Counted from the stretch's first letter, positions 1-64,000 are shown. The stretch is 64,000 nt of DNA from an uncultured Nitrospirota bacterium (GCA_913051775.1 CAJXCL010000005.1:5499-69498); one strand, 5' to 3'. Notes: generated by a model from the sequence alone, not told the origin. Numbers and translations: made by a program.

Positions 1-352
1 CCAATTCCACGAATGTTTCATGGGCCTTTTTTTCCATACCAATAGCGAGTTCCAAAACCGCTTTCATGTCTCCGTTTTGTAATATTTCCGTCTCATCCGC
101 TGAAATAATGCTTTGCGGAATATGCGATTCCAATAGTTTCACGTATCTCTCGGGATTAAATTCCTCCGGCCAAGGGGTACTTTTGGTTTTGTTGATAAGA
201 TGCCGGATGTGGCCTTCTTCCATATCAGCAAGTTCCAGAAAAAGCATACGGGATTCATCGTTTTTCGTAATTTCCGCTGCCTGGTTGAAAAAAACTTCGG
301 ACTTTACTTCATGCTCCAACGCTGATTTAAAAAGTTCAGCTGTTACCTGCAT
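1..352 (-). CDS. Ferritin-like/rubrerythrin-like diiron protein, 3' end outside window
   Basis: Reverse-strand translation from ATG (rc of 350-352) gives MQVTAELFKSALEHEV...LELADMEEGHIRH...LELAIGMEKKAHETF with ExxH-type diiron motifs. GGAGGAG Shine-Dalgarno sits 5 nt upstream. The listed + ORF 66..404 is Cys/Ser-rich and implausible. Confidence 0.55.
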   Translation of the reverse strand, partial: MQVTAELFKSALEHEVKSEVFFNQAAEITKNDESRMLFLELADMEEGHIRHLINKTKSTPWPEEFNPERYVKLLESHIPQSIISADETEILQNGDMKAVLELAIGMEKKAHETFVEL

Positions 353-484
353 AAACTCCTCCTTCAAATTTAAGTATAAGTTCTTTGAAATGAAGAATCA
401 ATAATTATTTGAAAAATAATTTATTAATATGAACAGCCAACTAAAAGGTCCCTTTATATTAATACGGATTTTTGGAGTATCATT

Positions 485-1072
485 ATGAATATGAAATTAG
501 TTTATTTATTGCGTCACAGCCAGACAGAGGATAATAACAACAGAATTATACAGGGACAAAGTGATTCCCCTTTAACTCCTGAGGGCATGAATTCTATAAA
601 AAAAAGAACTAAAAAACTCAACGATATAACTTTTAACGTAATCTACTGTAGTCCTTTAGGAAGAGCAAGGTCTTCTCTGGATATATTATTAAAAGAACTC
701 AAATAAAATACAAATGTCGCTTAGCTGGATGAATTAATGGAAATAGACTTTGGAAAATATACCAAAAAAAACATTAATGAAATCATAGATATCATTAAAG
801 TTCACAAAAAAAATACGTCAAAACCTTATCCCGATGGTGAAAGCGGGGATATGTTCAAGGAAAGAGTGATACGTTTTATGAGTAAGTTTATTCTAAAAAG
901 TGATGGAAAATGTTTTCTTGTAATGACACATTACGGGGTAATAGAAACAATACTACAACATTATAATAACCTTTCCTATGAAGAAATTCGTTCAAAGAAA
1001 GACGCCATTATACGTCTTTCTTTGAATCGGAATAATGCGGACGTTTCTTTTGAAGGAGATAAGGGGCTTTAA
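485..1072 (+). pseudogene. Histidine phosphatase (phosphoglycerate mutase family) gene interrupted by two in-frame stops (TAA 704-706, TAG 722-724)
   Basis: ORFs 485..706 (LLRHSQTEDN...SPLTPEG, the RHG-type N-terminal motif) and 737..1072 (VMTHYGVIETIL, C-terminal His motif) are in the same frame. Combined length of about 196 aa fits the family. Confidence 0.6.
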
Positions 1073-1083
1073 TGAGAGATCCC

Positions 1084-1740
1084 TTATAACACCCCTTTCG
1101 TGGAAGGAATATCTTTAATCCTTTTATCTATTCTGGTTCCCTGGTCCATTGCCTTTGCAAAAGCCTTGAAAATCGCTTCAACTATATGATGTAAATTGTT
1201 TCCTGAAATCATTCTAACATGAAGCGTAGCTCCGCAATTATTGGCAAAGGCCTGAAAAAAATCCTCAACCAATTCCACATCAAACTCACCGACTTTTTCT
1301 TTAGGAAGGTCCACATCATAAACAAAATAAGGCCTGCCGGCAATGTCCACTACTACTAACGCAAGTGCTTCATCAAGAGGGGTATAAGCAGAGCCAAATC
1401 TCCGAATTCCCTTTTTATCTTTCAGCGCTTTTTTGAAAGCCTCTCCCACTACAATGCCGACATCTTCCACCGTATGATGAAAATCAATCTCTACATCTCC
1501 TTTTGCCTTGATTTTCAGATCAAATAAACCGTGTTTAGCTAATTGAGCTAGCATGTGATCAAGAAAGGGGATATTAGTTGAAAGATCATATTTCCCCTCA
1601 CCATCAAGGTTTAAATCCATTTCAATTTCTGTCTCACTGGTTTTACGTTTTACAACAGCAGTTCTTTCCACAAAAATTTCCTTAAAATTTTCATAATTAG
1701 AAATTGAATCTCCCCGTGTTTCCGCACGGAGCTTCTTCAC
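1084..1740 (-). CDS. hisB: Imidazoleglycerol-phosphate dehydratase
   Basis: RKTSETEI...FLDHML...[16 protein letters not shown]...SGRPYF motifs typical of IGPD. Start may be downstream of the listed Met. Confidence 0.9.
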
Positions 1741-1777
1741 ACTTGGAAAATGAAAACCAATTTAATAATTTAAAAAC

Positions 1778-1800
1778 CGCAGGGGGCATACCCCTGCAAC
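1778..1800 (-). terminator. GC-rich hairpin GCAGGGG-gcata-CCCCTGC downstream of the cupin gene
   Basis: Perfect 7-bp stem in an AT-rich spacer between convergent/tandem minus-strand genes. The T-run is only partial. Confidence 0.3.
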
Positions 1801-1917
1801 CCCCACAAAAACTTTGCGCTCTCCACCCTTCCGTGAGGGGTATTCTGTCACAGTTTTTATAAAGATTAACACAAAGATAAGAAATTATAAAGTAAGAAGA
1901 TATTTTTAGATCCCAAA

Positions 1918-2244
1918 TTATTTCTTTGAAGCACAAAGGTAAACAACAGGCACGCGGCTTACTACTACGGCCCAATGCTCCGTATTAGCAGGCAGGTCCA
2001 AACGATCTCCAGGGTTCAATATAACTTCTTTATCGTTTCTCAGGCCCATTTTAATTGATCCTGAAATAATCCACCTGACTTCCAGATCAGGATGTGTATG
2101 CCACGGATATGAAACTCCCGGGTTGTCACTCCAGCGATAAAAATCAAGCCCCTCCTGCCTGAGAGAGTTCTCCAGTTCCTTAGCTGAAGGAGGAATATTT
2201 TTATCCCATCTTTGTAATTTCATAAAGCGTCCATGGGACCGCAA
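1918..2244 (-). CDS. Cupin domain protein
   Basis: WHTHPDLEVRWIISGSIKMG...LNPGDRLDLPANTEHW cupin two-motif pattern. Confidence 0.7.
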   Translation of the reverse strand: MRSHGRFMKLQRWDKNIPPSAKELENSLRQEGLDFYRWSDNPGVSYPWHTHPDLEVRWIISGSIKMGLRNDKEVILNPGDRLDLPANTEHWAVVVSRVPVVYLCASKK

Positions 2245-2366
2245 CTTATGACAACCCCATGTATCAGGGTGTCCGAAAACTAATTTAATAAAACGAGTGA
2301 AGTTTTAATCTGAGTTACTAGAACAGTACATAAAGAGGAAAACGTAAATATGATGTGGAACCCACC

Positions 2367-2522
2367 TTAGGAGATATTAAACAAAATATGGGATTTCGAA
2401 AGCTTCTCTTAAGGACAAAACCCAAGGTGAATATCGAAGTCGGTTTAGTAGCTATCGCTCACAATATTAAAAAGATAAAATCCTTCTTGCAGGTCAATCA
2501 GATGGCTTTCCAGTTAGCATAA
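2367..2522 (+). mobile_element. C-terminal remnant of an IS1182/IS5-like DDE transposase
   Basis: Translation GDIKQNMGFRKLLLRTKPKVNIEVGLVAIAHNIKKI resembles the conserved C-terminal tail of IS1182-type transposases (..NRGFRRFLLRGLEKV..EWGLVAIAHNLKK). It starts right after a stop, so it is a fragment. Confidence 0.5.
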
Positions 2523-2755
2523 TTGGAAAGATTAATAGATCCGAGCCGTTCCCAAAGGAAAATAACAAAAAAATAACCCTTTGTGCGTACCTTTTAGGGT
2601 TTTAGCCAATATAGAAATTTTTTTCGGACACCCTAGGACTCAGGGGGTGTTAATTTATTTTTGTTGCGGCTATCGATCGTTATGTCATTCCCGACTTGAT
2701 CTGGAATCCATGATTAAGGATACGAATTTCCGTTATGAAACAGTGCTTCTTTCTG

Positions 2756-3847
2756 TTAGCTTGTTAACGCACTCAAACTTTTAAGTATTATTTCATCCGG
2801 AATATCATCTCTGATTACGACAGATCCAGGCTGTTTCATTAAAACAAGTTTGATCTTATCATTTCTTACTTTTTTATCATAGTATAAAGCCGACAGGATT
2901 TTCTCCGGGCTGATATTTGGCAGTTGCGTGGCTAAATTAAAAGATTCTATAAGTTTCTTTACTCTTTCAACATCTTTTTTATCGCATAGTTCCGCTTCAT
3001 GAGAGATAAAAGCCGCAGCGATCATTCCAATAGCCACGGCCTCTCCATGCTTATACTTCTCATACCCGGTCAGACTTTCCAAGGCGTGACCGATAGTATG
3101 TCCGTAGTTTAAGACCGAGCGAAGCCCTTTTTCCCGCTCGTCTTTTGAAACAATGGAAGCCTTGATTTTGCACGAGGCTTCAATAATATACTGCAATGCA
3201 TTGAAGTCCAGGTTTTTAATATCCTCGACGCGGCTTTCTAAAAAGTTAAACAGCATTTCATCGGCAATTATCCCATATTTTATTATTTCCGCCATTCCAC
3301 AGCGAAATTCAATTTTTGGCAATGTTTTCAGGGCATTCAGGTCTACAAAAACCCCTGCAGGTTGATAAAAAGCGCCGATCATATTTTTCCCCAGGGGGTG
3401 ATTGACAGCGGTTTTCCCGCCGACGCTGCTGTCTACCTGGGCGAGCAAAGAAGTCGGTATCTGAATATAAGGGACTCCTCTTCTATATGTTGCCGCGACA
3501 AAACCCGTAAGGTCACCAAGAACTCCACCACCCATGGCTATTAAAGGTGAATATCGGTCATGTTTGCCGTCAAGCAGGCGGTCATAGATTTTTTCCGCTT
3601 CCCGCATATTTTTGTATTTTTCCCCGTCTGGGACTTCTATAACTTCCATCTCAAATCCATTCTTTTTTAGATTTAAAATGATTCTTTCACCATAAAGCTT
3701 TATGAGGTGTGAATTAGAAATAAGTACTGCTTTATGAGAAAAATGAAACTGTTGAATTCGCTCACCTATTGTGTTCAGTGTATTCAAGCCGATATGGATA
3801 TAATAGCTTCGTTCACCTAATTCTACTTTGACGACTTTTTCATTCAC
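2756..3847 (-). CDS. aroB: 3-dehydroquinate synthase
   Basis: GGGVLGDLTGFVAATYRRGVPYIQIPTSLLAQVDSSVGGKTAVNHPLGKNMIGAFYQP motifs. Confidence 0.9.
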   Translation of the reverse strand: MNEKVVKVELGERSYYIHIGLNTLNTIGERIQQFHFSHKAVLISNSHLIKLYGERIILNLKKNGFEMEVIEVPDGEKYKNMREAEKIYDRLLDGKHDRYSPLIAMGGGVLGDLTGFVAATYRRGVPYIQIPTSLLAQVDSSVGGKTAVNHPLGKNMIGAFYQPAGVFVDLNALKTLPKIEFRCGMAEIIKYGIIADEMLFNFLESRVEDIKNLDFNALQYIIEASCKIKASIVSKDEREKGLRSVLNYGHTIGHALESLTGYEKYKHGEAVAIGMIAAAFISHEAELCDKKDVERVKKLIESFNLATQLPNISPEKILSALYYDKKVRNDKIKLVLMKQPGSVVIRDDIPDEIILKSLSALTS

Positions 3848-4025
3848 ACTGGTTGCTCACTGTTCGTTTCTGGTTGTGACCTGCCCTACTATTTGTACCA
3901 CTCGTAGAGTCAGTCCTATTTCATCATTCCTTTATTTAATGCGTAGCATAATATGAAGGAATCAACTCAATAAATTCCGGTGCTGCTGGCCTATAACTTA
4001 AAGAGCTATGAGGTCGAAAAGTATT

Positions 4026-4226
4026 CTATCCTTTTCTCCACACCTCAATCAATACTTTTGCTTCCAATAAGGTTTCAAATATTTCACCATTAAGCAGTTC
4101 ATCCCTTAGTTTACCATTAAAACTTTTAATATAGCCGTTCTCCCAAGGACTTCCAGGTTCAATGTAAAGCGTCCTGACGCCAACACTACCTAACCAATCT
4201 CTAACTGCTGTCGCTGTATATTCTGC
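4026..4226 (-). mobile_element. Internal/C-terminal fragment of an IS3-family transposase (rve integrase core)
   Basis: Reverse-strand translation AEYTATAVRDWLGSVGVRTLYIEPGSPWENGYIKSFNGKLRDELLNGEIFETLLEAKVLIEVWRKG* matches the conserved SPWENGYIESFNGKLRDE motif of IS3 OrfB. It has no start codon and is preceded by a stop. Confidence 0.6.
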
Positions 4227-8493: not shown

Positions 8494-9834
8494 TCAGACG
8501 CGGGGCATATTCCGAAGTATTCTAAGGTAGTTTAGTTTCTCAGGAATTTTATCATCTTCACAATAATTATTTTCCGCCAAAATTTTAAGATCGTCTAAAA
8601 CCTGCCTATCCCCCTCAAAAATTACTTTTTCATAACCTTTGTCCGAGATAAGACCTGCTGCCATCAAAAGATTGATCACTGATTTGGCATTAAAACGCTG
8701 ACTCTCCACAATCATCTCCACATCAGTTCCGTGTTCATTAACAATCAATGAAACGTAAGTTGAAGGTTTCGCGTGAAATCCCAGAGGTTTGGGAACAGGA
8801 AGTTCATACTGGACTTTTTCAACGTAGGCAGTCATGATGTCTTCTGCCAGTGCGTTTCCTTTTTGCATATAGTAATTGCTGTAATAAAAACAAAAATTTA
8901 TAATCTTGTCCAATACCTCTTTTCTATCAACTACCGCTGCTATCTTTTCAGAAGCGCTGTTAGGATTAGTATCGCTCTCATGGCGTTCATAAAAATGAGA
9001 TAGCCATCTCGCAGCTTCTAATAAGTGAAGGGGAATAGATGTAGCCCTTCTGAGGTCACTGAGTTTGGAATTTTCACGTTCCATAACCGTATTTTTTACA
9101 TAAGTATCGTAATCGGACTGTACGCCATGAATAATTGTTTTTAGTTTTCTTGCCTTTTTTTCATTTATCTTTAAAGGCACAAGTTCGAATAATTCCTCGG
9201 AAGAAAATTTACACCCCAGATTTTCTTCTCGACACATTTTAGCTACCTTCCTTACTTTCCGGGCTAACGATAATATCCTTTCTTTTTCTCCATCTACTTT
9301 TTTAAACTCAAAATCAACTGGAAGTGGTTGAGTAGCTTCAATATCACTATATTCTTTTTCAGGAGGGACAATTTCTTTTACAGGGATCCTGAGCTCTTTT
9401 GCTTCTTCAAGACAAGCGATGAAAAGCTTTTTTATAAACTCATTTACAAACTCCAATGTTTGGCCGGTATCCACAATAAAATCAGAAGAATCCTTTTCAA
9501 TTTCCTCAATTTTATAATGTTCATAGCGATAAAAGATGTGATGTAATAGGTAGGCTACAATTCCCAGGTTTCTCATGGACGCAATAAGTTCCGAAAAATA
9601 AAACCATTTTTTATTTAGCCGCGCACCATGGTCATCTAAAAAACTTTCAAAAGATTGAAGCTGTTGAATGAATATCCCGAATAATTTCTTGCTTGAACGA
9701 AAACATTCTCCAGTCCAGTAGTAATAAAGAGGGAATAAATCTTCACCTGCTATTCCCACTAATTCTGTAAAGTTGACGCTATTGTCCTGGTTATTATTTT
9801 TTTTTTTGGAATTCATAATAGTAAAAACTTGCAA
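8494..9834 (-). CDS. Hypothetical protein: uncharacterised ~350-aa N-terminal region fused to a C-terminal HPr-like (PTS phosphocarrier) domain
   Basis: C-terminal 85 aa, LGFHAKPSTYVSLIV...RFNAKSVINLLMAAGLISDKGYEKVIFEGDRQVLDDLKILAE, aligns with HPr: GLH(T/A)RPA with His15, AKS with Ser46, and EGEDE...L.KLMAE. I recognise no family for the N-terminal part. Confidence 0.7.
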   Translation of the reverse strand: MQVFTIMNSKKKNNNQDNSVNFTELVGIAGEDLFPLYYYWTGECFRSSKKLFGIFIQQLQSFESFLDDHGARLNKKWFYFSELIASMRNLGIVAYLLHHIFYRYEHYKIEEIEKDSSDFIVDTGQTLEFVNEFIKKLFIACLEEAKELRIPVKEIVPPEKEYSDIEATQPLPVDFEFKKVDGEKERILSLARKVRKVAKMCREENLGCKFSSEELFELVPLKINEKKARKLKTIIHGVQSDYDTYVKNTVMERENSKLSDLRRATSIPLHLLEAARWLSHFYERHESDTNPNSASEKIAAVVDRKEVLDKIINFCFYYSNYYMQKGNALAEDIMTAYVEKVQYELPVPKPLGFHAKPSTYVSLIVNEHGTDVEMIVESQRFNAKSVINLLMAAGLISDKGYEKVIFEGDRQVLDDLKILAENNYCEDDKIPEKLNYLRILRNMPRV

Positions 9835-21216: not shown

Positions 21217-22161
21217 CTAACGATTTCGAGGCTTTACACTATGAGTTGTGGATTCGTCAGCATTTCTGGCACATCGAAAACCAATGTTTGGAAGTTTCGT
21301 GTCTGGAGATAAAGGATGGCGAAATGTGGTTCGTGCATTTTCAAGGATATTTTTCCATGAGCCCCCGCGAAGAACTCTATATTGTTTTTGAAACCGAACA
21401 TCAAGGTCCAAATTGTTTTTATAAGGCAAATACAGGCTGTCGGTCCATTCCCAAACATTTCCCGCCATGTCAAAAACTCCAAAAACACTTGCCCCCTGTG
21501 GAAAACTTCCTACCGGAACAAGACCGGCAGGGTTCTCCGCATTTGATTGAGATTCTTCATTTTCAAGGATACTTGCCGCGTTTTTTCTTGAAGAATCGCC
21601 CCATGGCCATTTTACTGGCTGTGTACCCCGGGCGGCTTTTTCCCATTCAGTCTCTGTTGGAAGTCGTTTCCCTGCCCATTTACAGTATTTTTTTGCTTCT
21701 TGCCATGTAATGCCAGTAACAGGACAAAGATCGCACTCTGAGGCAGGATAGCTTTCATACTGATTGTCAAATAGTTTGTACTGAGCATTTGTTATTTCGT
21801 ATATATCAATAAAAAACGCCGGTACAAATACCCTTGCGGCAGGTCTTTCATTTTTTTCCCCGAGGTTATCACCCATAGTAAAATTACCGCCTTGCAAGTA
21901 AGCCATATCAGAACCATCTTTTTTATTAAAATAAGTTGGCAATATAGCTGGTAATCCGGGAATAATTTTTTTAACTTTTTTCTTTCTTGGTTCAGGTTCC
22001 TTGATGATTTCTTCTTTTGATGGTTTCTTTATTATTACTTTAGGGGGTTTTTTGCGCTTTTTTGTCGGAACTATTTTGGCGCAGGAGATTGGAAAAACTA
22101 ATATCATTATTAAAGCAAAATATTTAATATATTTTTTATTCATGAAGACTTCTCTAAACAA
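21217..22161 (-). CDS. Formylglycine-generating enzyme (FGE/SUMF1) family lipoprotein
   Basis: GNVWEWT, RGGSW, GFRCAR motifs. N-terminal lipoprotein signal (LVFPISCAK). Confidence 0.8.
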   Translation of the reverse strand: MFREVFMNKKYIKYFALIMILVFPISCAKIVPTKKRKKPPKVIIKKPSKEEIIKEPEPRKKKVKKIIPGLPAILPTYFNKKDGSDMAYLQGGNFTMGDNLGEKNERPAARVFVPAFFIDIYEITNAQYKLFDNQYESYPASECDLCPVTGITWQEAKKYCKWAGKRLPTETEWEKAARGTQPVKWPWGDSSRKNAASILENEESQSNAENPAGLVPVGSFPQGASVFGVFDMAGNVWEWTDSLYLPYKNNLDLDVRFQKQYRVLRGGSWKNILENARTTFRHPLSPDTKLPNIGFRCARNADESTTHSVKPRNR

Positions 22162-40730: not shown

Positions 40731-42227
40731 TCAATCCATTAAGCTTTTTGTTGCCGGAAGGTATTGGCTAAAAGATTTTCGCCCTTTATCTTTTAGAAAG
40801 GATTCCAGAAATACCAGAGAAGCGCCGCCTCCTGTGGAAATAAAAAAATTTGTTACAAAATAGTTCACAAGCGTGTAAAGGTCATGATCAGAAAATTTAA
40901 TCTCAAAGAGTTTGTGATTAATATTGTTTCCTATTACTTTATTTAATTCTTTTAAGAACTCTTTCTCAATACTGGAAAGATTGAACTGTTGAACAATGGC
41001 GGCAGTATCCCCTCCCCCTATTACAACCAAAGAATCTTTGTCCCGTATGCATTTATTAAAAAGAGATTGGGCTATCCCAACAGAACCCTTCGCATACCCT
41101 TTATTGGTAGGATGATCAAAAGCTCCTAGAGGGCCGTTCCAGAAGATATTTTTTACATTATTATTAAGCAGGATTTCTGAAAATTTCTTTATGGAGTTTG
41201 GCCCGATATCTAATTGCAGCTCTTTGTTAAAATCAGGGGCCTCTGATATTGAAAACTTTGGAGAATCGAAATCCGATGAAACTTTATAGTCCACAGGGAA
41301 GATGATCTCAACTCCCTTATCCTCGGCCATTTTAATGATTTTACCGGCCAGCATGACCTCTTCATGGATGTTATTCTCCTTCCCCGCTTTTGCTTTCAAC
41401 TTAGCCGGGATTTTTATTTGATCTTTTTTCAAGTCCCTGTCTAAAAGAAAGGCATTCACCATTTTTCCACCAAGTATAATACGGCCAATACCGGATTGAA
41501 CAAACTGCTTTATTATACTTATTTTATCTGACACTTTTGCTCCGCCGACTATAAAAACGGTATGTTCAGGTTCTTTAATAATCCTTTGCGCCAGTTCACC
41601 AAGTCGTAAAATCTCTTCGTTTAGGAGCATGCCCGCTACAGCAAGCTTGTTCCTTTTTTTCATAAGATTGGGAAGCTTTATGATGCTCCTGGTCTCTCTA
41701 TGGCTGGTTCCAAAAGCACAGTTAATATATACATCACATATATTGGCCAAATCCTTTATAAATTCATCCCTGTATGAAGTTTCTCTTTTCAGAAGATAAC
41801 GCAAGTTCGGCAGGAACTTAATTCCGCCAAGAGGCAACTGGTTCTTTTTAACCATCTCGATTGAATGCTTCAATTGGGAATCCATAGATTCCGGAGGGAA
41901 AACGATATAAGAATCCTCATATTCTTTTTTTAAAAGGGTTTCGAAATGAGAGCAAACAAACTGCAGATTAAATATTCCGTCCCAACTGTTATCACTCAGA
42001 TGTTTATGAGGTCTGCCAAGGTGAGATCCGATAATGATCCTACAGTTTCCCTGTGTGAGTTCATGTATTCTTTTAAAGCATCTATCCAAAAACCTCCTGA
42101 TGCGCTCATCGTCCGTGACCAGAAATCTACCCGGTGTATCTTTTTTGAGCGGTACATTGAAATCCGTGCGTATAAATATGGTTTTGTGTAAAAGGTCTTT
42201 GGCTTTTAACTTTTCAAGCAGCTTCAT
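40731..42227 (-). CDS. pgk: Phosphoglycerate kinase (long form, 498 aa with insertions)
   Basis: RTDFNVPL, IIGSHLGRP, WNGPLGAFD, GGGDTAAIV, STGGGASLVFLE. Confidence 0.85.
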   Translation of the reverse strand: MKLLEKLKAKDLLHKTIFIRTDFNVPLKKDTPGRFLVTDDERIRRFLDRCFKRIHELTQGNCRIIIGSHLGRPHKHLSDNSWDGIFNLQFVCSHFETLLKKEYEDSYIVFPPESMDSQLKHSIEMVKKNQLPLGGIKFLPNLRYLLKRETSYRDEFIKDLANICDVYINCAFGTSHRETRSIIKLPNLMKKRNKLAVAGMLLNEEILRLGELAQRIIKEPEHTVFIVGGAKVSDKISIIKQFVQSGIGRIILGGKMVNAFLLDRDLKKDQIKIPAKLKAKAGKENNIHEEVMLAGKIIKMAEDKGVEIIFPVDYKVSSDFDSPKFSISEAPDFNKELQLDIGPNSIKKFSEILLNNNVKNIFWNGPLGAFDHPTNKGYAKGSVGIAQSLFNKCIRDKDSLVVIGGGDTAAIVQQFNLSSIEKEFLKELNKVIGNNINHKLFEIKFSDHDLYTLVNYFVTNFFISTGGGASLVFLESFLKDKGRKSFSQYLPATKSLMD

Positions 42228-55320: not shown

Positions 55321-55976
55321 CTAAAGACAATAAAACAAGGTTATATATGCAACGATCTCATCGCTGATATCCACGTTAGGCATTTTCGAATCTTTTTTAA
55401 ATGCTGAGGAATCTTTGATTACTTTAAAAATTTCCTGTGGCTTCATTTTAAATTTTATATTGTCCAGTTGTGGTCTTGATTGATCACCAAGCATATATTT
55501 TTTTGTGACAGCTATTGCAACTGTATTTTTTGAAATAATTTTTCCCAATTTTGATTTCTCTTTCCTCTTTCGGAATTTCTATCTCTACTTCTTTTAAGCA
55601 GAGTAGTCTATCGGCTCTCCCTCGTTAGGGTGAAGGGTTCGCACATAACCGGCTAACACTCCAGCTTCATACTCAGAAAGGGTCTTTCTTCCCCACGAAG
55701 GCATAGCAATCGCTTTGTCCATCCCAGCGCCTCCTTTTGTAATAACGTTACCAATGCTTGATTGGATAATTTTGCCAAATATCTTTCTTCACTGTCATTC
55801 AAATCTCTCGGTTTGGGATTAAGGAATTCCGAGTTGACCCCATCACCCTTTCCTTTCTAACCATGACACTGAGTACAAAAATGAATAAAGAGTTTCTTTC
55901 CAATATCTTGCGGTTCTTCTATACCAGCGGAAACAAATGGGAAAAGTATAGATTGGCTCAACAGGCATATCAGCAA
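55321..55976 (-). pseudogene. Diheme cytochrome c4-like gene carrying an in-frame TAG and at least 3 frameshifts
   Basis: Domain 1: signal-like LLICLLSQSILFPFVSAG, then GKKLFIHFCTQCHG*KGKGDGVNSEFLNPKPRDLNDSEERYLAK, then a -1 shift in an A-run to IIQSSIGNVITKGGAGMDKAIAMPSWGRKTLSEYEAGVLAGYVRTL. Domain 2: IGKNYFKKYSCNSCHKK, then a shift in an A7 run to YMLGDQSRPQL...KMPNVDISDEIVAYITLF. Two CxxCH motifs. Confidence 0.5.
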
Positions 55977-56049
55977 AGCATCGCAAAGAAGCCGCTAACT
56001 ATTTGCAGTGAACCGTGGAAAGGACACTGAAGAAAATGAATTCATGGGG

Positions 56050-56895
56050 TCAATTGCCCATAGCACTATGAGCCAGGCGAAATCCGATGGAGTAGGATTG
56101 ATCACGCGGGGCATATTCGAGGCGCATGGTTGACCGGAGATGTTTCGGCAAATCCCCCCAGGAACCGCCCCGCAACACACGGTAAGACCCTTTCAAAGAT
56201 CCTTGAGGATTATCACGAGGACTTTTTTCATAATATTTTCTCCCATACCAATCAGATACCCATTCCCAAACATTACCCGACATATCATACAAACCAAGAG
56301 AATTCGGTTTTTTTGTTTTTACAGCATGGGTTTTCATTCCTGAATTATGCTCATGCCAGGCATGATCTTCCAATTCCTTAAAAATGCTTGTCCCTGACCA
56401 TACTACCCTTTTCCCTCTTCCCCGTGCCGAATATTCCCATTCCGCTTCTGTGGGAAGTCTATAATTCATACCGGTATTGCTGTTTAGCTTTTTAATAAAC
56501 TTCTCAATATCATTCCAGGATACTTTCTCAACGGGGCAGTCTTTCCCGCATTTATTAAAATTAGATGGATTATTTCCCATTATTTCCTGCCATTTCTCCT
56601 GTGTTACCTCATGCTCTCCAAGATAAAAATTACCCACACATACCTTATGGACAGGTCTTTCATCCGAATTTCCAACCTCATATGTGTCTCCCATATTAAA
56701 ACAATCTCCTTTGATAAAAATCATTCCTTCAATGGGCCTGTCATTGTTATGGGAAACGCCACTTACTTCAGGATCTGTCTTAATGACTTGAGAGTCTTCG
56801 GCAAAGGCACGCGATAAAGGCGCATGAATTAACAACATAACATTCATGTAAAAAATTATTCTAAATATGATTTTATTTATTATAAATCTTCGCAA
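56050..56895 (-). CDS. Formylglycine-generating enzyme (FGE/SUMF1) family protein, second copy
   Basis: GNVWEWVSDWY, RGGSWG, GFRLAH. N-terminal signal sequence. Confidence 0.8.
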   Translation of the reverse strand: MRRFIINKIIFRIIFYMNVMLLIHAPLSRAFAEDSQVIKTDPEVSGVSHNNDRPIEGMIFIKGDCFNMGDTYEVGNSDERPVHKVCVGNFYLGEHEVTQEKWQEIMGNNPSNFNKCGKDCPVEKVSWNDIEKFIKKLNSNTGMNYRLPTEAEWEYSARGRGKRVVWSGTSIFKELEDHAWHEHNSGMKTHAVKTKKPNSLGLYDMSGNVWEWVSDWYGRKYYEKSPRDNPQGSLKGSYRVLRGGSWGDLPKHLRSTMRLEYAPRDQSYSIGFRLAHSAMGN

Positions 56896-57148: not shown

Positions 57149-57340
57149 ATGGGTAATAATGAAAAAACTAATAGATATGACATTGAGCAAATAAATGAAG
57201 CCAGGCGTTTGTCTGGTTTAAAAGAAATACGAACAAAAGGTCGCAGTTGCCTTCGCTGTGGCAGAAAATTTGTTTCAGAAGGGGATCACAATCGTTTGTG
57301 CGATACCTGCCGCAAAGTCAGCGTAAGTGAATTTGTATGA
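57149..57340 (+). CDS. Small zinc-ribbon protein (CxxC...CxxC)
   Basis: 63 aa with CLRCG...CDTC. AAGGAA RBS 8 nt upstream. Confidence 0.4.
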   Translation: MGNNEKTNRYDIEQINEARRLSGLKEIRTKGRSCLRCGRKFVSEGDHNRLCDTCRKVSVSEFV

Positions 57341-57358: not shown

Positions 57359-58066
57359 TTAACCTCTTGATTCACTTGCATCTTTCACAAAACTTTTACT
57401 ACCATTCCCCTGATAGACATATTGCATAGTGTAGCAACTGCTTATTCTTTTTTCCTCTTTCTTGCAATAAAAATTTATAACCTGCATTTTGGCGTAATTT
57501 CCCTCAGCAGTTTTTATTATAAAAACATTTTTATGTGACTTAAGGTAATGGTCCCAGAAACTATATTTATACCATTTTTCTAAGTTAGCATTATTAGAAT
57601 CTGGTACAGGGGGAGGACTAATATTTTTTATAAATTTCGAATCTTCAGGAACTTGAGTTAAAGAATCAAAATCTGTGGTTCCCAGTTTTGCGACTGAAAC
57701 CTGCCCCTTTTTACTTTTATCTCCCCAATTAGATGCAATATTCGCGCGGCTAAATGCCAGATCCCAACTCTCTGGTGCCGACTGATTTGTAACACCTGGG
57801 ATAACACTTCCCCTGGAAAAATCAAAAAATACCCAATTATCTATATCAGTTGCTTCAAAAGTATATATTACTGTGTCTGTTAATTTTTTGCCTACCTTTA
57901 TTGGATCAATAGATGATACGGTGTATAACTTTTCTGGCTTTTCCTTTAAAAGATCGGGCATTTGAATATTCATTTGACCCATCATAATTCTATAACCGAT
58001 CTCAATTGAAAGAAGCATAAGAAATATATAAACAATATTAGGAAGATATTTCAATAATCTTTTCAT
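57359..58066 (-). CDS. Hypothetical secreted/membrane-anchored protein (possibly HmuY-like)
   Basis: N-terminal TM/signal segment. Weak resemblance to the HmuY-like beta fold. Confidence 0.35.
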   Translation of the reverse strand: MKRLLKYLPNIVYIFLMLLSIEIGYRIMMGQMNIQMPDLLKEKPEKLYTVSSIDPIKVGKKLTDTVIYTFEATDIDNWVFFDFSRGSVIPGVTNQSAPESWDLAFSRANIASNWGDKSKKGQVSVAKLGTTDFDSLTQVPEDSKFIKNISPPPVPDSNNANLEKWYKYSFWDHYLKSHKNVFIIKTAEGNYAKMQVINFYCKKEEKRISSCYTMQYVYQGNGSKSFVKDASESRG

Positions 58067-59565: not shown

Positions 59566-60594
59566 TTATCCCCACAAGTCTTCTATTGACTGTAACGGCA
59601 GTGGTGCAGCAAGCTTTTGATTTTCCGGCTTTTTATGAAACTGGCTATCGTAAGTAAGAGCAAGCCAGATGGCCAGAGCGGGATAGTCATCTATCCAGGG
59701 CATCATTGGGGTCTCTTCCACTCCTTCCGAGACGCTTTTGAACCAGTCCGCATGGGTCCAGTCTTTCATTGGTCTGTCGTGGTTTCTTGATTTAGACAGT
59801 GGGTTTCTCAAGTCGCGTGCCCCTTCCATAAGCACAACACCGTCTTTCCCATGGCAAACAGAGCAGTTTAGATCTTCATAAATTTCTCCTTCGAAGACCT
59901 TTTGGCCAAGGGCAACCATTTCAGGATCTTCATCCCATGGGACAAGATTTTTTACATTTCCCCGCACAGGCATCTTTTCACGATTCCAGAGTGTTCCGAG
60001 ATATGCTAATAATGCGTCCATTTCCGGTGGGGAAATTTCTTCCCCGAAATAAGTCGGCATGGCTTTCTTTGATTTCTCATCTTCAAATCCCATTGCCTGC
60101 TTTTTCTTTGGATCCAAAATATGCTCTTTTAAATATTCCGGTGTCTGAAGCCCTATTTGCCATAAATCAAAATCAGGTCCTCTATCGGAAGAACCTTCAC
60201 CGGAAGCTTTATGGCAATTAATACATTTATTGGCAAGAAACACTTCTTTTCCTGCCGCTATGAGTTTCGGGCCGGGTTCAACTCTTACAAAAGGTGGCTT
60301 ATTAATTTTTGCAATCTCAAATTGTGGATCAAACTGGGGTAAAGCAAAGCCAACAACGGTGTAAATAAGCCCGCCTAACAAGAACGTCCCAAGTAACAGA
60401 GCCAATCGTCCGCCAGTACTTTCCGGATTTTTCAAGGGCGGCAAGTCAAGAAGGATGTAAAGTAGAAAGCCGGCAAATACGAAGATATTAAATACAAAAA
60501 CGAAAGGATATGTAAAACCCACATAGCTGGTGCCAACAGAAACAACTACCGCACTAATAACATACCCAATTACATTTTTAAGCCAAATATTCAT
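59566..60594 (-). CDS. Membrane-anchored diheme c-type cytochrome
   Basis: Two CxxCH (CINCH, CSVCH) with downstream Met ligands (MPTYF, MMPW). N-terminal two TM helices. Confidence 0.8.
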   Translation of the reverse strand: MNIWLKNVIGYVISAVVVSVGTSYVGFTYPFVFVFNIFVFAGFLLYILLDLPPLKNPESTGGRLALLLGTFLLGGLIYTVVGFALPQFDPQFEIAKINKPPFVRVEPGPKLIAAGKEVFLANKCINCHKASGEGSSDRGPDFDLWQIGLQTPEYLKEHILDPKKKQAMGFEDEKSKKAMPTYFGEEISPPEMDALLAYLGTLWNREKMPVRGNVKNLVPWDEDPEMVALGQKVFEGEIYEDLNCSVCHGKDGVVLMEGARDLRNPLSKSRNHDRPMKDWTHADWFKSVSEGVEETPMMPWIDDYPALAIWLALTYDSQFHKKPENQKLAAPLPLQSIEDLWG

Positions 60595-60712
60595 TTTTCC
60601 TCCTAGAAGTATAAAACGGAGAGGCTCCGCAACCGAATGGGGCTACCGCTCCAGTAAGCAAATAAAAAAAAATTTCAAAAAGCAAGCTTTTACAGAGTAG
60701 TAATCTAATGGA

Positions 60713-62533
60713 CTAATGTTCACTGCCTGTTTTACCTGCCTTTAATTGGAGCCAGATAACTCCGCTTAGAATCAGAAAATATACCAGAGTTATCTCGGTT
60801 ATTAATAATGATGAGTCTTTTAAAGCAGGCGTATAGGCATCAGGCGTCATATCCTTAAAAACCCTGTAAACATGGAAGTTTCTACGCGCCAGGGACCTGA
60901 TAGCACCCATTAAACTCATCAGCCATATTCCGGAAAATGCTAAAAAGATTAATCCCACTTGGGAGATAGGGTTAATTTTCCCCCATACGACTGTTCCTTT
61001 TCTCATGGCTACCCTGTATAAAACAAAATTGACAAAGGTAATAAAGACCAGACCAAAAGAAGCCTTAATTTTTATTCCCATGACACCCATAAAGGCCAGA
61101 TCACCGGATAATTCCATGATACGCATATACTCGCTTTTTTCCATACCCTCAGGGATCATGCCCGGCTCCGGTACCATGGTGGCAAAGACATGCCTGGGGC
61201 AAAACCAGAGAGCGGCGCAAACAAACATAATCGCAAAGTTTATTTTTACCCATCTTAAATATTTTGGATCCCCTTTAATACGTTGCATACTCACATATAT
61301 ATAATAACTGCTGCCGATAAATAAAAAGCCAACCAGCACCGCCTGAAGTTCCATATACATGGAAAGGCGATCCGACATAATATACATACCGATATTCGGA
61401 TCGTAGGCATATAATTCCCTGGCCAGATAGTATCCCATCAGCGGGAGCGGAAGTAAAAAACCAACACCTAAAGTATTTCCAGTATATCCCTGCCAATCGT
61501 AAAAAGCCCTTTCTTCGTCGTTTTTCGCGAAAAGATACATAATCGCGGCGATCACACCTACAAGATAACCTCCAAAGGTAAGGTTTCCAACCAGCCTGTG
61601 GTAATTGAGGGGCCACCATGAATAATTATTAATCCAGGCCCATTCTCCAAATGTGGCTATCTCCTTAATGGAGCCCTCAACTTTGGGGGGGGTTGTCATC
61701 ATAGCGGCCGGGCCGTCCATAAGCAGAAGGAGCGAAATCCCCGCCACATTTAATAAAATCCCGATAAGAATATGTACGCCCTTTCTGTTGGCTTTGTTGA
61801 GAGGATCCCAAGTATAATAATAAAGATACATAAAACCAGTTTCTACAAGAAACAACATGGGGTACCAGAAGGTTATCAGGTCATTAAAACCTCGAAAGAA
61901 CCAGGTAGTAAAGGTCGGATAATAAACAATGAGGCATAAAGCAAAAAACCCACCGGTTAGGGCAGTAAAGCTGTAACACATTACAAACACTTTTGTTACT
62001 TCATAGGCCAGTCTTTCATATCTTTCATCCCTAGTTTTCAAAAATAGACATTCCGCGATAACAGTATATAGCGGAACGCCAAGAATAAATGACGCGAACA
62101 GGATATGGAGCTGAGCGATAACCCAGATCAGGTTCCGATTTGAAAGGCCGAAATTGAACTTGTTGACCGGAAGATCGTTATAATCTTCTCTCTTAACCAT
62201 ATCTCTGTTTGGGTTGTCCGGATTGGTTTTAAACTCCGGAAACGGCTCAGTACCCATTGGGATTTCTACAGGCTGTATTTCTCCTTCTGCTGTTTCTTCT
62301 TCCTCAGCTTCTTCTTCCTCTTCCTCATCTTCGAGAAACTCGCCCTCAGCTTCTTCTCCCTCAGCTTCTTCTGGCTCCGAGACTTCCTCAGCAGCAGAAA
62401 CTGCCTCAGCTATGGCTATAAAAGGGGATGATGGGGAAATTATATGAGCTCCCATATAACAAAAGGACAAGAAAAATAAAGCGATAAAAATTAGGGTTAA
62501 TTTTTTGTACAAAAAGATTGTTTTAATATTCAC
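60713..62533 (-). CDS. Cytochrome bd ubiquinol oxidase subunit I-like (CydA-like, bd-like) membrane protein with acidic Glu-rich N-terminal extension
   Basis: VIAQLHILFASFILGVPLYTVIAECLFLKTRDERYERLAYEVTKV resembles the CydA N-terminal helices. ~14 predicted TM segments, 606 aa. N-terminal EEEEEEEAEEEE stretch after a signal/TM segment. Confidence 0.75.
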   Translation of the reverse strand: MNIKTIFLYKKLTLIFIALFFLSFCYMGAHIISPSSPFIAIAEAVSAAEEVSEPEEAEGEEAEGEFLEDEEEEEEAEEEETAEGEIQPVEIPMGTEPFPEFKTNPDNPNRDMVKREDYNDLPVNKFNFGLSNRNLIWVIAQLHILFASFILGVPLYTVIAECLFLKTRDERYERLAYEVTKVFVMCYSFTALTGGFFALCLIVYYPTFTTWFFRGFNDLITFWYPMLFLVETGFMYLYYYTWDPLNKANRKGVHILIGILLNVAGISLLLLMDGPAAMMTTPPKVEGSIKEIATFGEWAWINNYSWWPLNYHRLVGNLTFGGYLVGVIAAIMYLFAKNDEERAFYDWQGYTGNTLGVGFLLPLPLMGYYLARELYAYDPNIGMYIMSDRLSMYMELQAVLVGFLFIGSSYYIYVSMQRIKGDPKYLRWVKINFAIMFVCAALWFCPRHVFATMVPEPGMIPEGMEKSEYMRIMELSGDLAFMGVMGIKIKASFGLVFITFVNFVLYRVAMRKGTVVWGKINPISQVGLIFLAFSGIWLMSLMGAIRSLARRNFHVYRVFKDMTPDAYTPALKDSSLLITEITLVYFLILSGVIWLQLKAGKTGSEH

Positions 62534-62652
62534 TAAAAAATACCTCCTTATAATAAGTAAAACTTTTCCCCTGTCAAAGCGCCATGCAGCTACGCCAAAT
62601 AGAAAACAAATTAAAATATAAGACTTTATTAAAATCTGTTAAGGTAAAACTC

Positions 62653-62802
62653 CTATTTCTTCAACCCGATCATTAGTATAAAACCAATAGCAAAAAAACC
62701 GATTACTCCCACATACCAGTCAATAAACAAAATTAAAACTGAGGTAACAAGGCCAATGATGCCAATATACCAGTCAATATGCTTATCAATTAACTCTCTC
62801 AT
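62653..62802 (-). CDS. Small 2-TM membrane protein (49 aa) immediately upstream of the CydA-like gene
   Basis: MRELIDKHIDWYIGIIGLVTSVLILFIDWYVGVIGFFAIGFILMIGLKK, internally repeated (DWYIG/DWYVG). It is below the ORF-track length cutoff. Confidence 0.35.
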   Translation of the reverse strand: MRELIDKHIDWYIGIIGLVTSVLILFIDWYVGVIGFFAIGFILMIGLKK

Positions 62803-62953
62803 CGATTTCACCCCTCAAGTATAAAGTTATATGCATTTTTAAGGTAATAACTTTAACGTAAATAATGAATCGCGATTTTAACTTTATAAAAACTTTGAGT
62901 CAAGGTTTTTACATAGGTACAACAAATCTGTATAATCTAAATTTAAAAAACTG

Positions 62954-63784
62954 TTGCAAAAAAGAACGGTTTTAATTAACGATCATATGGCAAAAAAATC
63001 TTTAATTACTTTAACTTCTGATTTTGGATACCGCGATCCTTTTGTCGGAATCATGCAGGGGGTAATGTTAGGGATAAACCCCTCTCTGCAGTTTATCCAC
63101 TTGACTCATAATATAGAAGCTCATAACATTTTGCAGGCAACTTATGTTTTTGAAACCGCATATTCCTATTTCCCTGCTGGTACTATTCATTTGGTCGTGG
63201 TAGACCCGGGGGTTGGAAGTAAGAGGAAATCTCTTCTCGTAAAATCGGAGAAATATTGTTTTATTGGCCCTGACAACGGTGTTTTATCCGCTGTTTTCCA
63301 GAAAGAAAAGGGACTGGAAGTTTATCAAATAGACCCGGAAAAATTTATTTCTGGAAAAATAAGCTTTACCTTTCATGGAAGGGACGTCTTCGCACCGGCA
63401 GCCGGTTTATTTTCTTTAAACCATGATCCTGCAAAGTTAGCTCATAGAGTGGAGAGTTGTAAAAAAATTGCCCTGCCGTATCCCCAAAAAATTGATACAC
63501 ATAGTTTTTCAGGAGAGGTTATATATATCGACCGCTTCGGTAACCTGATAACCAATTTTTCCGAACGGTTCATGTGTCAACATATTGACCGGAAGCCGAT
63601 AAAAATAAAAATCGGTTCCTGCGTGATCACAGGTTTGAAATCGCACTATTCGGAGGCTAATCCCCGGGAGGTATCCGCTTTGATTAATAGCTGGAATAAT
63701 ATAGAAATATTCCTTTCTTCTGCAAACGCGGCAGATTTTCTAAAAACTCGAGTGGGAGACGTGGTAGAAATAGAGACCGGTTAA
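62954..63784 (+). CDS. SAM hydroxide adenosyltransferase/SAM hydrolase (DUF62) family
   Basis: LTSDFGYRDPFVGIMQGV, FHGRDVFAPAAG motifs. Probable start at Met 62990 (MAKKSLITL). Confidence 0.8.
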   Translation: MQKRTVLINDHMAKKSLITLTSDFGYRDPFVGIMQGVMLGINPSLQFIHLTHNIEAHNILQATYVFETAYSYFPAGTIHLVVVDPGVGSKRKSLLVKSEKYCFIGPDNGVLSAVFQKEKGLEVYQIDPEKFISGKISFTFHGRDVFAPAAGLFSLNHDPAKLAHRVESCKKIALPYPQKIDTHSFSGEVIYIDRFGNLITNFSERFMCQHIDRKPIKIKIGSCVITGLKSHYSEANPREVSALINSWNNIEIFLSSANAADFLKTRVGDVVEIETG

Positions 63785-63825
63785 GGTTAGGCATCGCATC
63801 GAAGCCGCACTGCCAAATGAATTAC

Positions 63826-63925
63826 TATTCCCTCACCCCCTTTTTTAAGGGGGAGTTTGGAGTGAGTATTTCCCTCTATCAAGAAGGGTGTCCCTCCGGG
63901 ACAGGGTGTGTTAAAAAAGTTGCTA
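63826..63925 (+). repeat. Dispersed repeat family 2, second copy
   Basis: CTCACCCCCTTTTTTAAGGGGGAGTTTGGAGTGAGTATTTCCCTCTATCAAGAAGGGTGTCCCTCCGGGACAGGGTG matches the reverse complement of 42408-42492. Followed at 63938-63962 by the family-3 motif GTAGGGTATCTCACTGTGGAAG. Confidence 0.6.
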
Positions 63926-64000
63926 AAATGGGACACCACGTAGGGTATCTCACTGTGGAAGCAACGTATTGCAGATTAGCAATACCAAGAAAAAAATTAT

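Follow-up and report, generated by a model that had tools for sequence, protein, structure and literature searches.

A compact, probable member of the OR-N (cytochrome bd-like oxidase) family encoded beside a dihaem cytochrome c in an uncultured bacterium

A 64,000-nucleotide (nt) stretch of DNA recorded as that of an uncultured Nitrospirota bacterium (GCA_913051775.1, CAJXCL010000005.1:5499-69498; hereafter the window) carries a module of three minus-strand genes encoding a 49-amino-acid (aa) protein, a 606-aa protein that resembles subunit I of cytochrome bd oxidase (CydA) and a 342-aa dihaem cytochrome c (Table 1). We are confident that this locus belongs to the OR-N ("bd-like oxidase") branch of the cytochrome bd superfamily. 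It represents a compact form, free of inserts, of a family that genomics defined over ten years ago, and public assemblies already contain the same sequence. An initial annotation of the window had called the module a candidate novel one, which cannot be upheld for a family long described as bd-like oxidase or OR-N. It had rightly placed the locus in the pattern of bd-like proteins encoded with cytochromes c, since the dihaem gene is adjacent here as it is across the family, and its remark that the function of bd-like proteins is not biochemically established still holds in the literature.

Results

The CydA-like protein and its ligand residues

The 606-aa protein matched the Pfam model Cyt_bd_oxida_I (PF01654) with 58.6 bits (cut-off 26.2), over profile positions 8-242 of 418 only. 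The solved CydA chain of Geobacillus was retrieved with E = 7.7e-9 by the single-sequence query and 2.4e-13 by the family-profile query, and hhalign aligned E. coli CydA with a probability of 87% (residues 138-375 vs 14-246). Similarity to CydA by sequence stopped after transmembrane (TM) helix 6, and the C-terminal half could not be aligned.

Within the aligned part, H143 corresponded to Geobacillus H21, that is E. coli His19, the ligand of the active-site haem, and was kept in 118 of 120 homologues. H312 took the place of His186, the haem b558 ligand, in both the profile and the hhalign alignments and was invariant in all 120. Y224 occupied the position of Glu99 and was a tyrosine in 120/120 homologues, and E231 corresponded to Glu107 in the CydA alignment. 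H254 lies at the spacing that Table S6 of Murali, Gennis and Hemp (2021) gives to His126; hhalign paired E. coli His126 with R250, four residues before it. Conservation at these five positions (H143, Y224, E231, H254 and H312) amounted to 98-100%. The only further invariant histidine, H554, is specific to the family. The alignments ended before the second b558 ligand, Met393, and the b595 ligand, Glu445, for which the invariant M386, M392, M453 and E456 are candidates. The Pfam and hhalign matches end at TM6 and leave a short stretch before the TM helix at 391-416, in which no long hydrophilic loop equivalent to the Q-loop was seen. The CydA-like nature claimed by the initial annotation was thus borne out by the PF01654 match, the CydA fold and the conserved haem-ligand positions. 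Among the features that it had proposed to score, His19 and His186 were kept, Glu99 was replaced by tyrosine and the Q-loop was lacking; a loss of all haem ligands, which it had named as a refutation, is contradicted by the invariant or nearly invariant H312 and H143.

Relationship to OR-N and census of relatives

"Cytochrome bd-like oxidases" were reported from Nitrospira in 2010 (Lücker 2010) and from Nitrospina and Kuenenia in 2011-2013. Their N-terminal part can be aligned with CydA and retains the haem b ligands, whereas the Q-loop and the residues for quinol are absent; genes for cupredoxins, a zinc-finger protein and cytochromes c with one or two haems are found in the same clusters (Lücker 2013). 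The name OR-N was given by Murali, Gennis and Hemp (2021), whose Table S6 lists tyrosine at E99 for OR-N1, OR-N2 and OR-N3b, histidine at H19, H126 and H186, and glutamate at the E107 position in the OR-N2 row. Later genome papers describe OR-N as conserved throughout Nitrospinota and report it from most genomes of Nitrospirales, and they consider it the likely cytochrome c-oxidising terminal oxidase of Nitrospira.

The residues of the 606-aa protein matched the OR-N2 row (the H19, H126 and H186 positions, Tyr at E99 and Glu at E107) in a test that consisted of a comparison with the rows of Table S6, not of an alignment with the reference sequences WP_062484563.1 and TKS59798.1. The module also shares the wider traits of the family: a CydA-like N-terminal four-helix part, no CydB, no Q-loop, no haem c motif in the CydA-like protein, flanking c-type cytochromes, neighbouring genes for a cupredoxin and a Zn-finger protein and, in relatives, pet or alternative complex III (ACIII) genes nearby. 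Assignment to a subfamily is less clear-cut. The nearest paralogue in Nitrospira lenta (43% identity) is the pet-adjacent one, which fits the description of OR-N1, for which petABD is given as operon context; identity with the other paralogue of that cluster is 36%. Tyr and Glu are found together in both paralogues, whereas Table S6 lists Gly for OR-N1. The Tyr/Glu signature of our protein therefore fits the OR-N2 row and its pet-adjacent proxy fits OR-N1; an ebdC-like gene, part of the OR-N2 context, was not seen at this locus. The locus further differs from OR-N relatives in having no adjacent nitrite oxidoreductase (NXR), pet or ACIII genes, and from those with a CydAA' pair in having a single CydA-like gene (in the window and about 10 kb past the module).

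Among 8000 candidates scored, 427 proteins were related at E <= 1e-5, and at least 575 related loci were present among species-representative genomes. Most of them belonged to Nitrospinota (46-52% identity), Nitrospirota including Nitrospira lenta (43-44%), Methylomirabilia, Chloroflexota, metagenome-assembled genomes (MAGs) labelled "Deltaproteobacteria" (54-56%) and an anammox MAG (52%); the values for the Nitrospira homologues refer to residues 132-606.

Two variants of the bd superfamily could be ruled out. Members of the OR-C family have 8 TM helices and a CxxCH motif within the CydA-like protein; the 606-aa protein has zero such motifs and its haem c domains reside on a separate protein. 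The CuB-like site proposed for NIDE0901-type proteins is incompatible with the presence of only four conserved histidines (H143, H254, H312 and H554), three of which map to canonical bd positions.

Topology and predicted structure

Hydropathy placed a hydrophobic segment at residues 3-34, and the AlphaFold model (85 homologues; mean predicted local distance difference test score (pLDDT) 78; predicted template modelling score 0.77) had an N-terminal helix at 3-32 followed by 12 long helices between residues 132 and 605. Two of the modelled helices (339-386) were not flagged by hydropathy, and pLDDT was below 50 over most of residues 38-121, indicative of disorder. Instead of the roughly 14 TM segments initially counted, we found 11-12 core helices; the signal or anchor helix at the N-terminus comes in addition. 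On functional grounds, we prefer a predicted topology with 11 core helices and the C-terminus inside. Under this topology, the invariant block at 375-392 (Y-x-Y-D...G-x-Y-x-M-S-D-R-x-S-M) and the loop with R546, R550 and H554 would face the periplasm, where bd haems sit. The alternative model has 12 core helices and its C-terminus would be outside. Another conserved motif, PEF...NP(D/E)NPNRDM, follows the Glu-rich tail.

For OR-N1 and OR-N2, 14 TM helices have been quoted, in contrast to the 11-12 core helices found here. We attribute this shortfall to the absence of lineage-specific inserts. A glycine-rich hydrophobic insert of about 113 aa follows residue 161 in 72 of 119 homologues, the 687-795-aa forms that are nearly all labelled Nitrospinota, and the Nitrospira paralogue has a two-helix insert before a W-x-x-P-R motif. 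The 606-aa protein contains neither.

Table 1. Positions of the genes of the module, segments of the CydA-like protein and adjacent genes, counted from the first nucleotide of the window
Feature	Position (nt)	Strand	Basis or remark
49-aa protein gene	62653-62802	minus	ORF; ATG 62802; GAGGGG 8 nt upstream
CydA-like 606-aa protein gene	60713-62533	minus	ORF, GTG start
CydA-like residues 1-44, putative signal peptide/signal anchor ending A-E-A	62402-62533	minus	hydropathy and model
CydA-like residues 45-125, Glu-rich tail, predicted disordered and periplasmic	62159-62401	minus	composition and pLDDT
CydA-like residues 126-606, membrane core, 11-12 predicted TM helices	60713-62158	minus	
342-aa cytochrome c subunit gene	59566-60594	minus	ORF; Pfam PF00034 and PF13442
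Cupredoxin-like 152-aa protein, signal/anchor segment	58198-58656	plus	Pfam Cupredoxin_1, 35.4 bits
HmuY-like protein	57359-58066	minus	beside module
Zn-ribbon protein	57149-57340	plus	beside module
FGE-sulfatase-like protein	56050-56895	minus	beside module

The dihaem cytochrome c partner

The 342-aa protein matched the Pfam models Cytochrom_C (PF00034) and Cytochrome_CBB3 (PF13442). It has CxxCH motifs at residues 124-128 (nt 60211-60225) and 244-248 (nt 59851-59865), in two c-type haem domains that are predicted to be periplasmic, and three N-terminal hydrophobic segments, predicted to span the membrane. The dihaem cytochrome c with its own membrane anchor described by the initial annotation was thereby recovered.

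The pairing of this gene with the CydA-like gene was obligate. We fetched 87 loci, 80 of which were evaluable, having at least 900 nt after the CydA-like gene, and in all 80 a homologue of the dihaem cytochrome c lay directly downstream of the CydA-like gene: as the next open reading frame (ORF) on the same strand in 72 and as a tblastn match at the same place in the other 8. The partner was a single dihaem gene in 53 loci. In 19 others, all but one labelled Nitrospirota or Nitrospira, it was split in two: directly upstream of the CydA-like gene lies a gene for a monohaem protein that matches residues 220-319, and directly downstream one for a TM-anchored monohaem protein that matches residues 1-204. 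That the products of this gene fission still adjoin the CydA-like gene on both sides is good evidence, at the level of the genome, for a single complex in which the CydA-like protein is joined by both haem domains. In Nitrospirales loci (L061-L087, e.g. L081 8228-11434), the CydA-like gene with its flanking monohaem genes is followed by Rieske and cytochrome b genes and then by another CydA-like paralogue, which has a cytochrome c of its own.

Among solved structures, the closest relative of the 342-aa subunit was Kustd1711 (PDB 7zs0; E = 1.5e-9); matches to CcoP and FixO models were weak. This dihaem cytochrome is encoded, together with blue copper proteins, in the nxr gene cluster of Kuenenia stuttgartiensis. 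It is strongly acidic, and bound Ca2+ keeps its haems at about +350 mV (Akram et al. 2024). It shares with the 342-aa subunit a strongly negative surface and the presence of two c-type haem domains, of which only the first aligns well. Kustd1711, however, carries a signal peptide, is soluble and has an additional "nose" domain, which is lacking in the 342-aa subunit with its three predicted N-terminal TM segments.

Search for CydB and gene contexts in relatives

A Pfam scan of all ORFs of at least 110 aa in the window, except six (111-156 aa; three of them inside larger annotated genes), detected no CydB, second CydA-like protein, Rieske protein, cytochrome b, ACIII or NXR component in the 64 kb; the rest of the window consists of housekeeping genes. 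A public collection contains the identical 606-aa protein in 53 blocks, two NCBI MAG assemblies among them. Contigs with this protein extend past the window end, and in their gene tables the following 10 kb, upstream of the module, contained neither cydB nor a second CydA-like gene but only housekeeping functions (PlsY-like, sigma factor, radical-SAM/DUF3463 and a divergent SAM_HAT gene). Nor did cydB appear in the eight related contexts that were screened for it by means of gene tables with Pfam annotation, and the family compared with E. coli CydB by hhalign gave a probability of 0.1%. The absence of a nearby CydB-like subunit noted initially is hence confirmed for the window and 10 kb upstream of the module, and no canonical cydB, the other refutation that had been named, adjoins it there. 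We reject a canonical cydAB, since neither the window nor the adjoining 10 kb nor the related gene tables contained cydB and the Q-loop is lacking as well.

In relatives, the module is set among respiratory genes. At 56% identity, a full ActABCDEF-like operon and a trihaem C554-like protein gene lie directly upstream; in relatives about 90% identical (L089-L091), this place is taken by Rieske, cytochrome b and multihaem cytochrome genes; and in Nitrospira lenta the order is reversed, with Rieske and cytochrome b genes after the pair. Upstream modules that oxidise quinol are the arrangement expected of a terminal electron sink that is fed via c-type haems. In an Anammoxibacter MAG (L007 756-10766), the CydA-like/cytochrome c pair stands amid a molybdopterin enzyme, an FeS protein and C554-like multihaem cytochromes, a context for which a non-oxygen role fits better in that organism.

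Gene spacing and the 49-aa protein

All three minus-strand genes of the initial annotation (49, 606 and 342 aa) were found as co-directional ORFs. With gaps of 119 and 118 nt they are, contrary to what had been stated, not tightly spaced. The two large genes are preceded by the Shine-Dalgarno-like sites AAGGAGG and AGGAGG and the 49-aa gene by GAGGGG. A promoter-like site with 11/12 matches lies in the gap between the small ORF and the CydA-like gene. Promoter-like and terminator-like matches in the region were no more frequent than in shuffled sequence, so that these scans are uninformative on co-transcription.

At its longest, the small ORF spans 62653-62811 (52 aa, GTG start). We prefer the ATG at 62802, because the three preceding codons are not conserved in the closest relative, L001, and GAGGGG precedes the ATG; the GTG start is unlikely. 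The 49-aa protein contains two hydrophobic stretches, and the motif DWY(I/V)G(I/V)IG is repeated in it. In a database of 5.8 billion sequences it had 7 matches, six at least 90% identical and one a 31-aa fragment with 57% identity. Judged by its sequence evolution, the ORF is a real gene under purifying selection: its ratio of nonsynonymous to synonymous substitution rates against three relatives (0.11-0.17) resembled that of the two large genes (0.11-0.20), and its place immediately before the CydA-like gene was kept with three different sets of genes further upstream.

In the window, a divergent SAM_HAT gene and a radical-SAM/DUF3463 gene lie upstream of the 49-aa gene (62812-64000); in L001, C554-like multihaem and cytochrome c genes (1-4095); and in L089-L091 (L089 4398-9698), genes for a Rieske protein, a split cytochrome b and multihaem cytochromes of 717 and 357 aa. 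Upstream DNA that differs wholly among relatives about 90% identical indicates a rearrangement breakpoint at the head of the module. A radical-SAM/DUF3463 gene stands upstream of the bd-like cluster in Nitrospira lenta (L081 5828-6844) as well as in the lineage of the window (L095 7622-8530), which may be a coincidence.

As the 49-aa protein was undetected outside the lineage of about 90% identity, it can be discarded as a family-wide subunit. By analogy with CydX, a lineage-specific small subunit is plausible. It differs from CydX in its two predicted TM segments and, as far as the lack of any Pfam match can tell, shows no similarity to it.

The acidic tail and a basic cupredoxin

Residues 45-125 of the CydA-like protein contain 32 Asp/Glu and 5 Lys/Arg (isoelectric point (pI) 4.05). 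This composition and the predicted disorder agree with the Glu-rich acidic N-terminal extension of the initial annotation, in which it was also called unusual. That it is not: an acidic run, defined as at least 15 Asp/Glu within 30 residues, occurred in 42 of the 87 loci, including every 687-795-aa form, and was absent from the Nitrospira, anammox-like and ACIII-linked forms among them. The tail thus recurs in the family and does not set this locus apart. In the homologues, the acidic run begins right behind an AxA-type site that closes the N-terminal hydrophobic segment. Cleavage may occur at this site, as the sequence suggests, and the tail would then be the free periplasmic N-terminus of the mature protein.

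The cupredoxin-like protein encoded 900 nt from the module on the opposite strand contains 21 Lys/Arg vs 9 Asp/Glu, and its mature part has a pI of about 10 and a net charge of +12. From its sequence, it is a candidate periplasmic electron donor. Between its putative copper ligands Cys and His, the spacing of 10 residues is unusually long. The gene is kept beside the module in L001 and L095-L097 and missing from L089-L091. By tblastn, which divergent cupredoxins would escape, no homologue was found near acidic-tailed homologues beyond the closest relatives, and a linkage of cupredoxin and tail thus lacks family-wide support. The docking surface for a basic partner that had been suggested for the tail is consistent with the charges observed here and draws no support from this comparison.

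Pairing of the tail with its own cytochrome c subunit is unsupported, because the periplasmic part of the partner is acidic, too, where a tail is present. Its mean net charge was -7.9 in loci with and -5.4 in loci without a tail (Mann-Whitney p = 0.05, for loci that are not phylogenetically independent), and at this locus it is -9.

Lineage and other genes of the window

The elongation factor G of the window was 100% identical to a protein on 18 contigs, 93% identical to a Tara Oceans protein and 64-65% identical to its best named relatives, which are Nitrospinota; one cluster of the 49-aa protein is labelled Nitrospinota as well. These matches place the window in a widespread marine Nitrospinota lineage, distant from the named entries of this group. 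The G+C content of the window is about 38%.

Beside the module, the Zn-ribbon and cupredoxin genes (Table 1) recall the nxr clusters, in which a Zn-finger protein and cupredoxins form part of a conserved accessory set (Lücker 2013). A further dihaem cytochrome c gene (55333-55994, minus strand) is frameshifted, and its intact 260-aa homologue in L001 aligns in two frames. The same fragments of 42 and 75 aa are present in three independent assemblies with the identical CydA-like protein, and we therefore take it for a real pseudogene and not for an assembly error. At 21217-22161, a second FGE-like gene adjoins a UbiA prenyltransferase gene. The phosphoglycerate kinase ORF (40731-42227, minus strand) has 498 aa, about 100 aa beyond the Pfam model, which suggests an insertion or an over-extended start, and a 446-aa ORF (8494-9834, minus strand) between M20 peptidase and LptF/G genes had no Pfam match.

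Discussion

The locus encodes a two-subunit core, the CydA-like protein and the dihaem cytochrome c, and one small protein specific to the lineage. We favour a function as a cytochrome c (or cupredoxin):O2 oxidoreductase on account of the gene contexts, the conserved equivalents of His19, His186 and Glu107 and the high potential of Kustd1711-type haems. In such an enzyme, the membrane-anchored dihaem cytochrome c would gather electrons on the periplasmic side from soluble or complex-bound c-type haems or from a cupredoxin. They would pass to a low-spin haem b at H312, whose second ligand is probably a methionine of the invariant Y-I-M-S-D-R-x-S-M block that replaces the Q-loop, and from there to a haem at H143, where O2 would be reduced. 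Protons may be supplied from the cytoplasm via a path formed by the conserved Y224, E231 and H254, in which case charge separation would generate a proton-motive force. The extra C-terminal helices probably stand in for CydB, and a quinol site would be lacking. The poly-Glu tail and the acidic dihaem domain would make the periplasmic side of the complex strongly negative, and a basic donor may be drawn to it. For this full O2-reductase mechanism we see about an even chance.

Several observations speak against it. The residue at the Glu99 position is a tyrosine, the Glu445 and Met393 ligands could not be placed from sequence, and the topology is ambiguous for residues 339-390. Within 10 kb of the module, this genome encodes no quinol-oxidising complex, and homologues occur in strictly anaerobic anammox bacteria. 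We found no purification, assay or solved structure of an OR-N protein in the literature, and the PDB contained no closer relative.

Comparison with known systems helps to delimit the proposal. Canonical CydAB (with CydX or CydS; E. coli, Geobacillus) uses quinol as donor, for which we propose cytochrome c here, and the module differs from it by the missing Q-loop, quinol site and CydB and by the exchange of Glu99 for tyrosine. In ACIII-caa3 and bc-cbb3 arrangements, a quinol:cytochrome c module is encoded with an oxidase carrying a membrane-anchored cytochrome c, e.g. CcoP. The relatives of our locus are similarly organised, with the module directly after Act or Rieske/cytochrome b genes, although its catalytic subunit is of the bd superfamily and not of the haem-copper type and has no CuB-type set of histidines.

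The anammox homologues, which adjoin a molybdoenzyme and an FeS protein, would also suit a cytochrome c:quinone (or quinol:cytochrome c) oxidoreductase, an alternative complex III-like module serving, for example, reverse electron transport. This has been proposed for the bd-like proteins of nxr clusters (Lücker 2013; Mundinger 2019). We consider it unlikely for the present family, from which the Q-loop and the CydA quinol-site region are absent and in which complete quinol-oxidising complexes are encoded next to the module, making a second quinone-reactive module redundant. The occurrence in anaerobes is likewise compatible with a protective reductase or scavenger of NO, H2O2 or trace O2 that does not conserve energy. 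Detoxifying roles are known for canonical bd oxidases from the cited literature, and close relatives carry a rubrerythrin gene 8-9 kb upstream of the module. Strict conservation of the putative proton-path residues Y224, E231 and H254, fusion of the module into complex III-type operons in relatives and very high expression in nitrite-grown Nitrospira (Mundinger 2019) would hardly be expected of a scavenger, and we doubt this role too.

The two remaining explanations bear on the nature of the CydA-like protein itself. A Pfam CydA match above threshold and the source labels of homologues ("cytochrome ubiquinol oxidase subunit I") would suit an ordinary quinol-oxidising cytochrome bd with cydB elsewhere in the genome. 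This has been largely refuted and is very improbable in view of the missing Q-loop, the tyrosine in place of Glu99, a C-terminal half that cannot be aligned to CydA by sequence, the invariably adjacent cytochrome c gene and the failure to find cydB in the window, about 10 kb beyond the module or in eight annotated related contexts. That the similarity to CydA is confined to the N-terminal half might point to a non-redox membrane protein, e.g. a transporter, sharing the CydA fold, to which we give next to no credence since H143 and H312, the haem-ligand histidines, vary hardly or not at all, a c-type cytochrome gene is always linked and the operon setting is respiratory.

Returning to the favoured cytochrome c (or cupredoxin):O2 oxidoreductase, a more specific version can be imagined, which we put forward as a speculation and think distinctly improbable. 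The tail, cleaved to a poly-Glu stretch of about 60-80 residues, and the acidic dihaem subunit would together act as a tethered electrostatic capture device for the basic cupredoxin. The module, with 11-12 helices, the 49-aa subunit and neither CydB nor CydA', would then be a bd-type O2 reductase that oxidises a copper protein, and the minimal working form of OR-N.

What remains of interest is the function of the family as a whole, a question that this locus illustrates and does not advance. OR-N is presumed to be the main terminal oxidase of Nitrospira and is conserved in Nitrospinota, both of them key to the nitrogen cycle in marine and engineered systems, and its substrate, cofactors, subunits and oxygen affinity have been a puzzle since 2010. 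Our census sharpens the probable minimal complex, with a dihaem partner that is always adjacent, is split in Nitrospira-type loci and is accompanied by three kinds of upstream modules. The version described here is reduced to one CydA-like gene, one dihaem cytochrome c and one small protein, without lineage-specific inserts. Given this compactness and the occurrence of the identical protein in many assemblies, it could be a convenient target for expression and structure determination.

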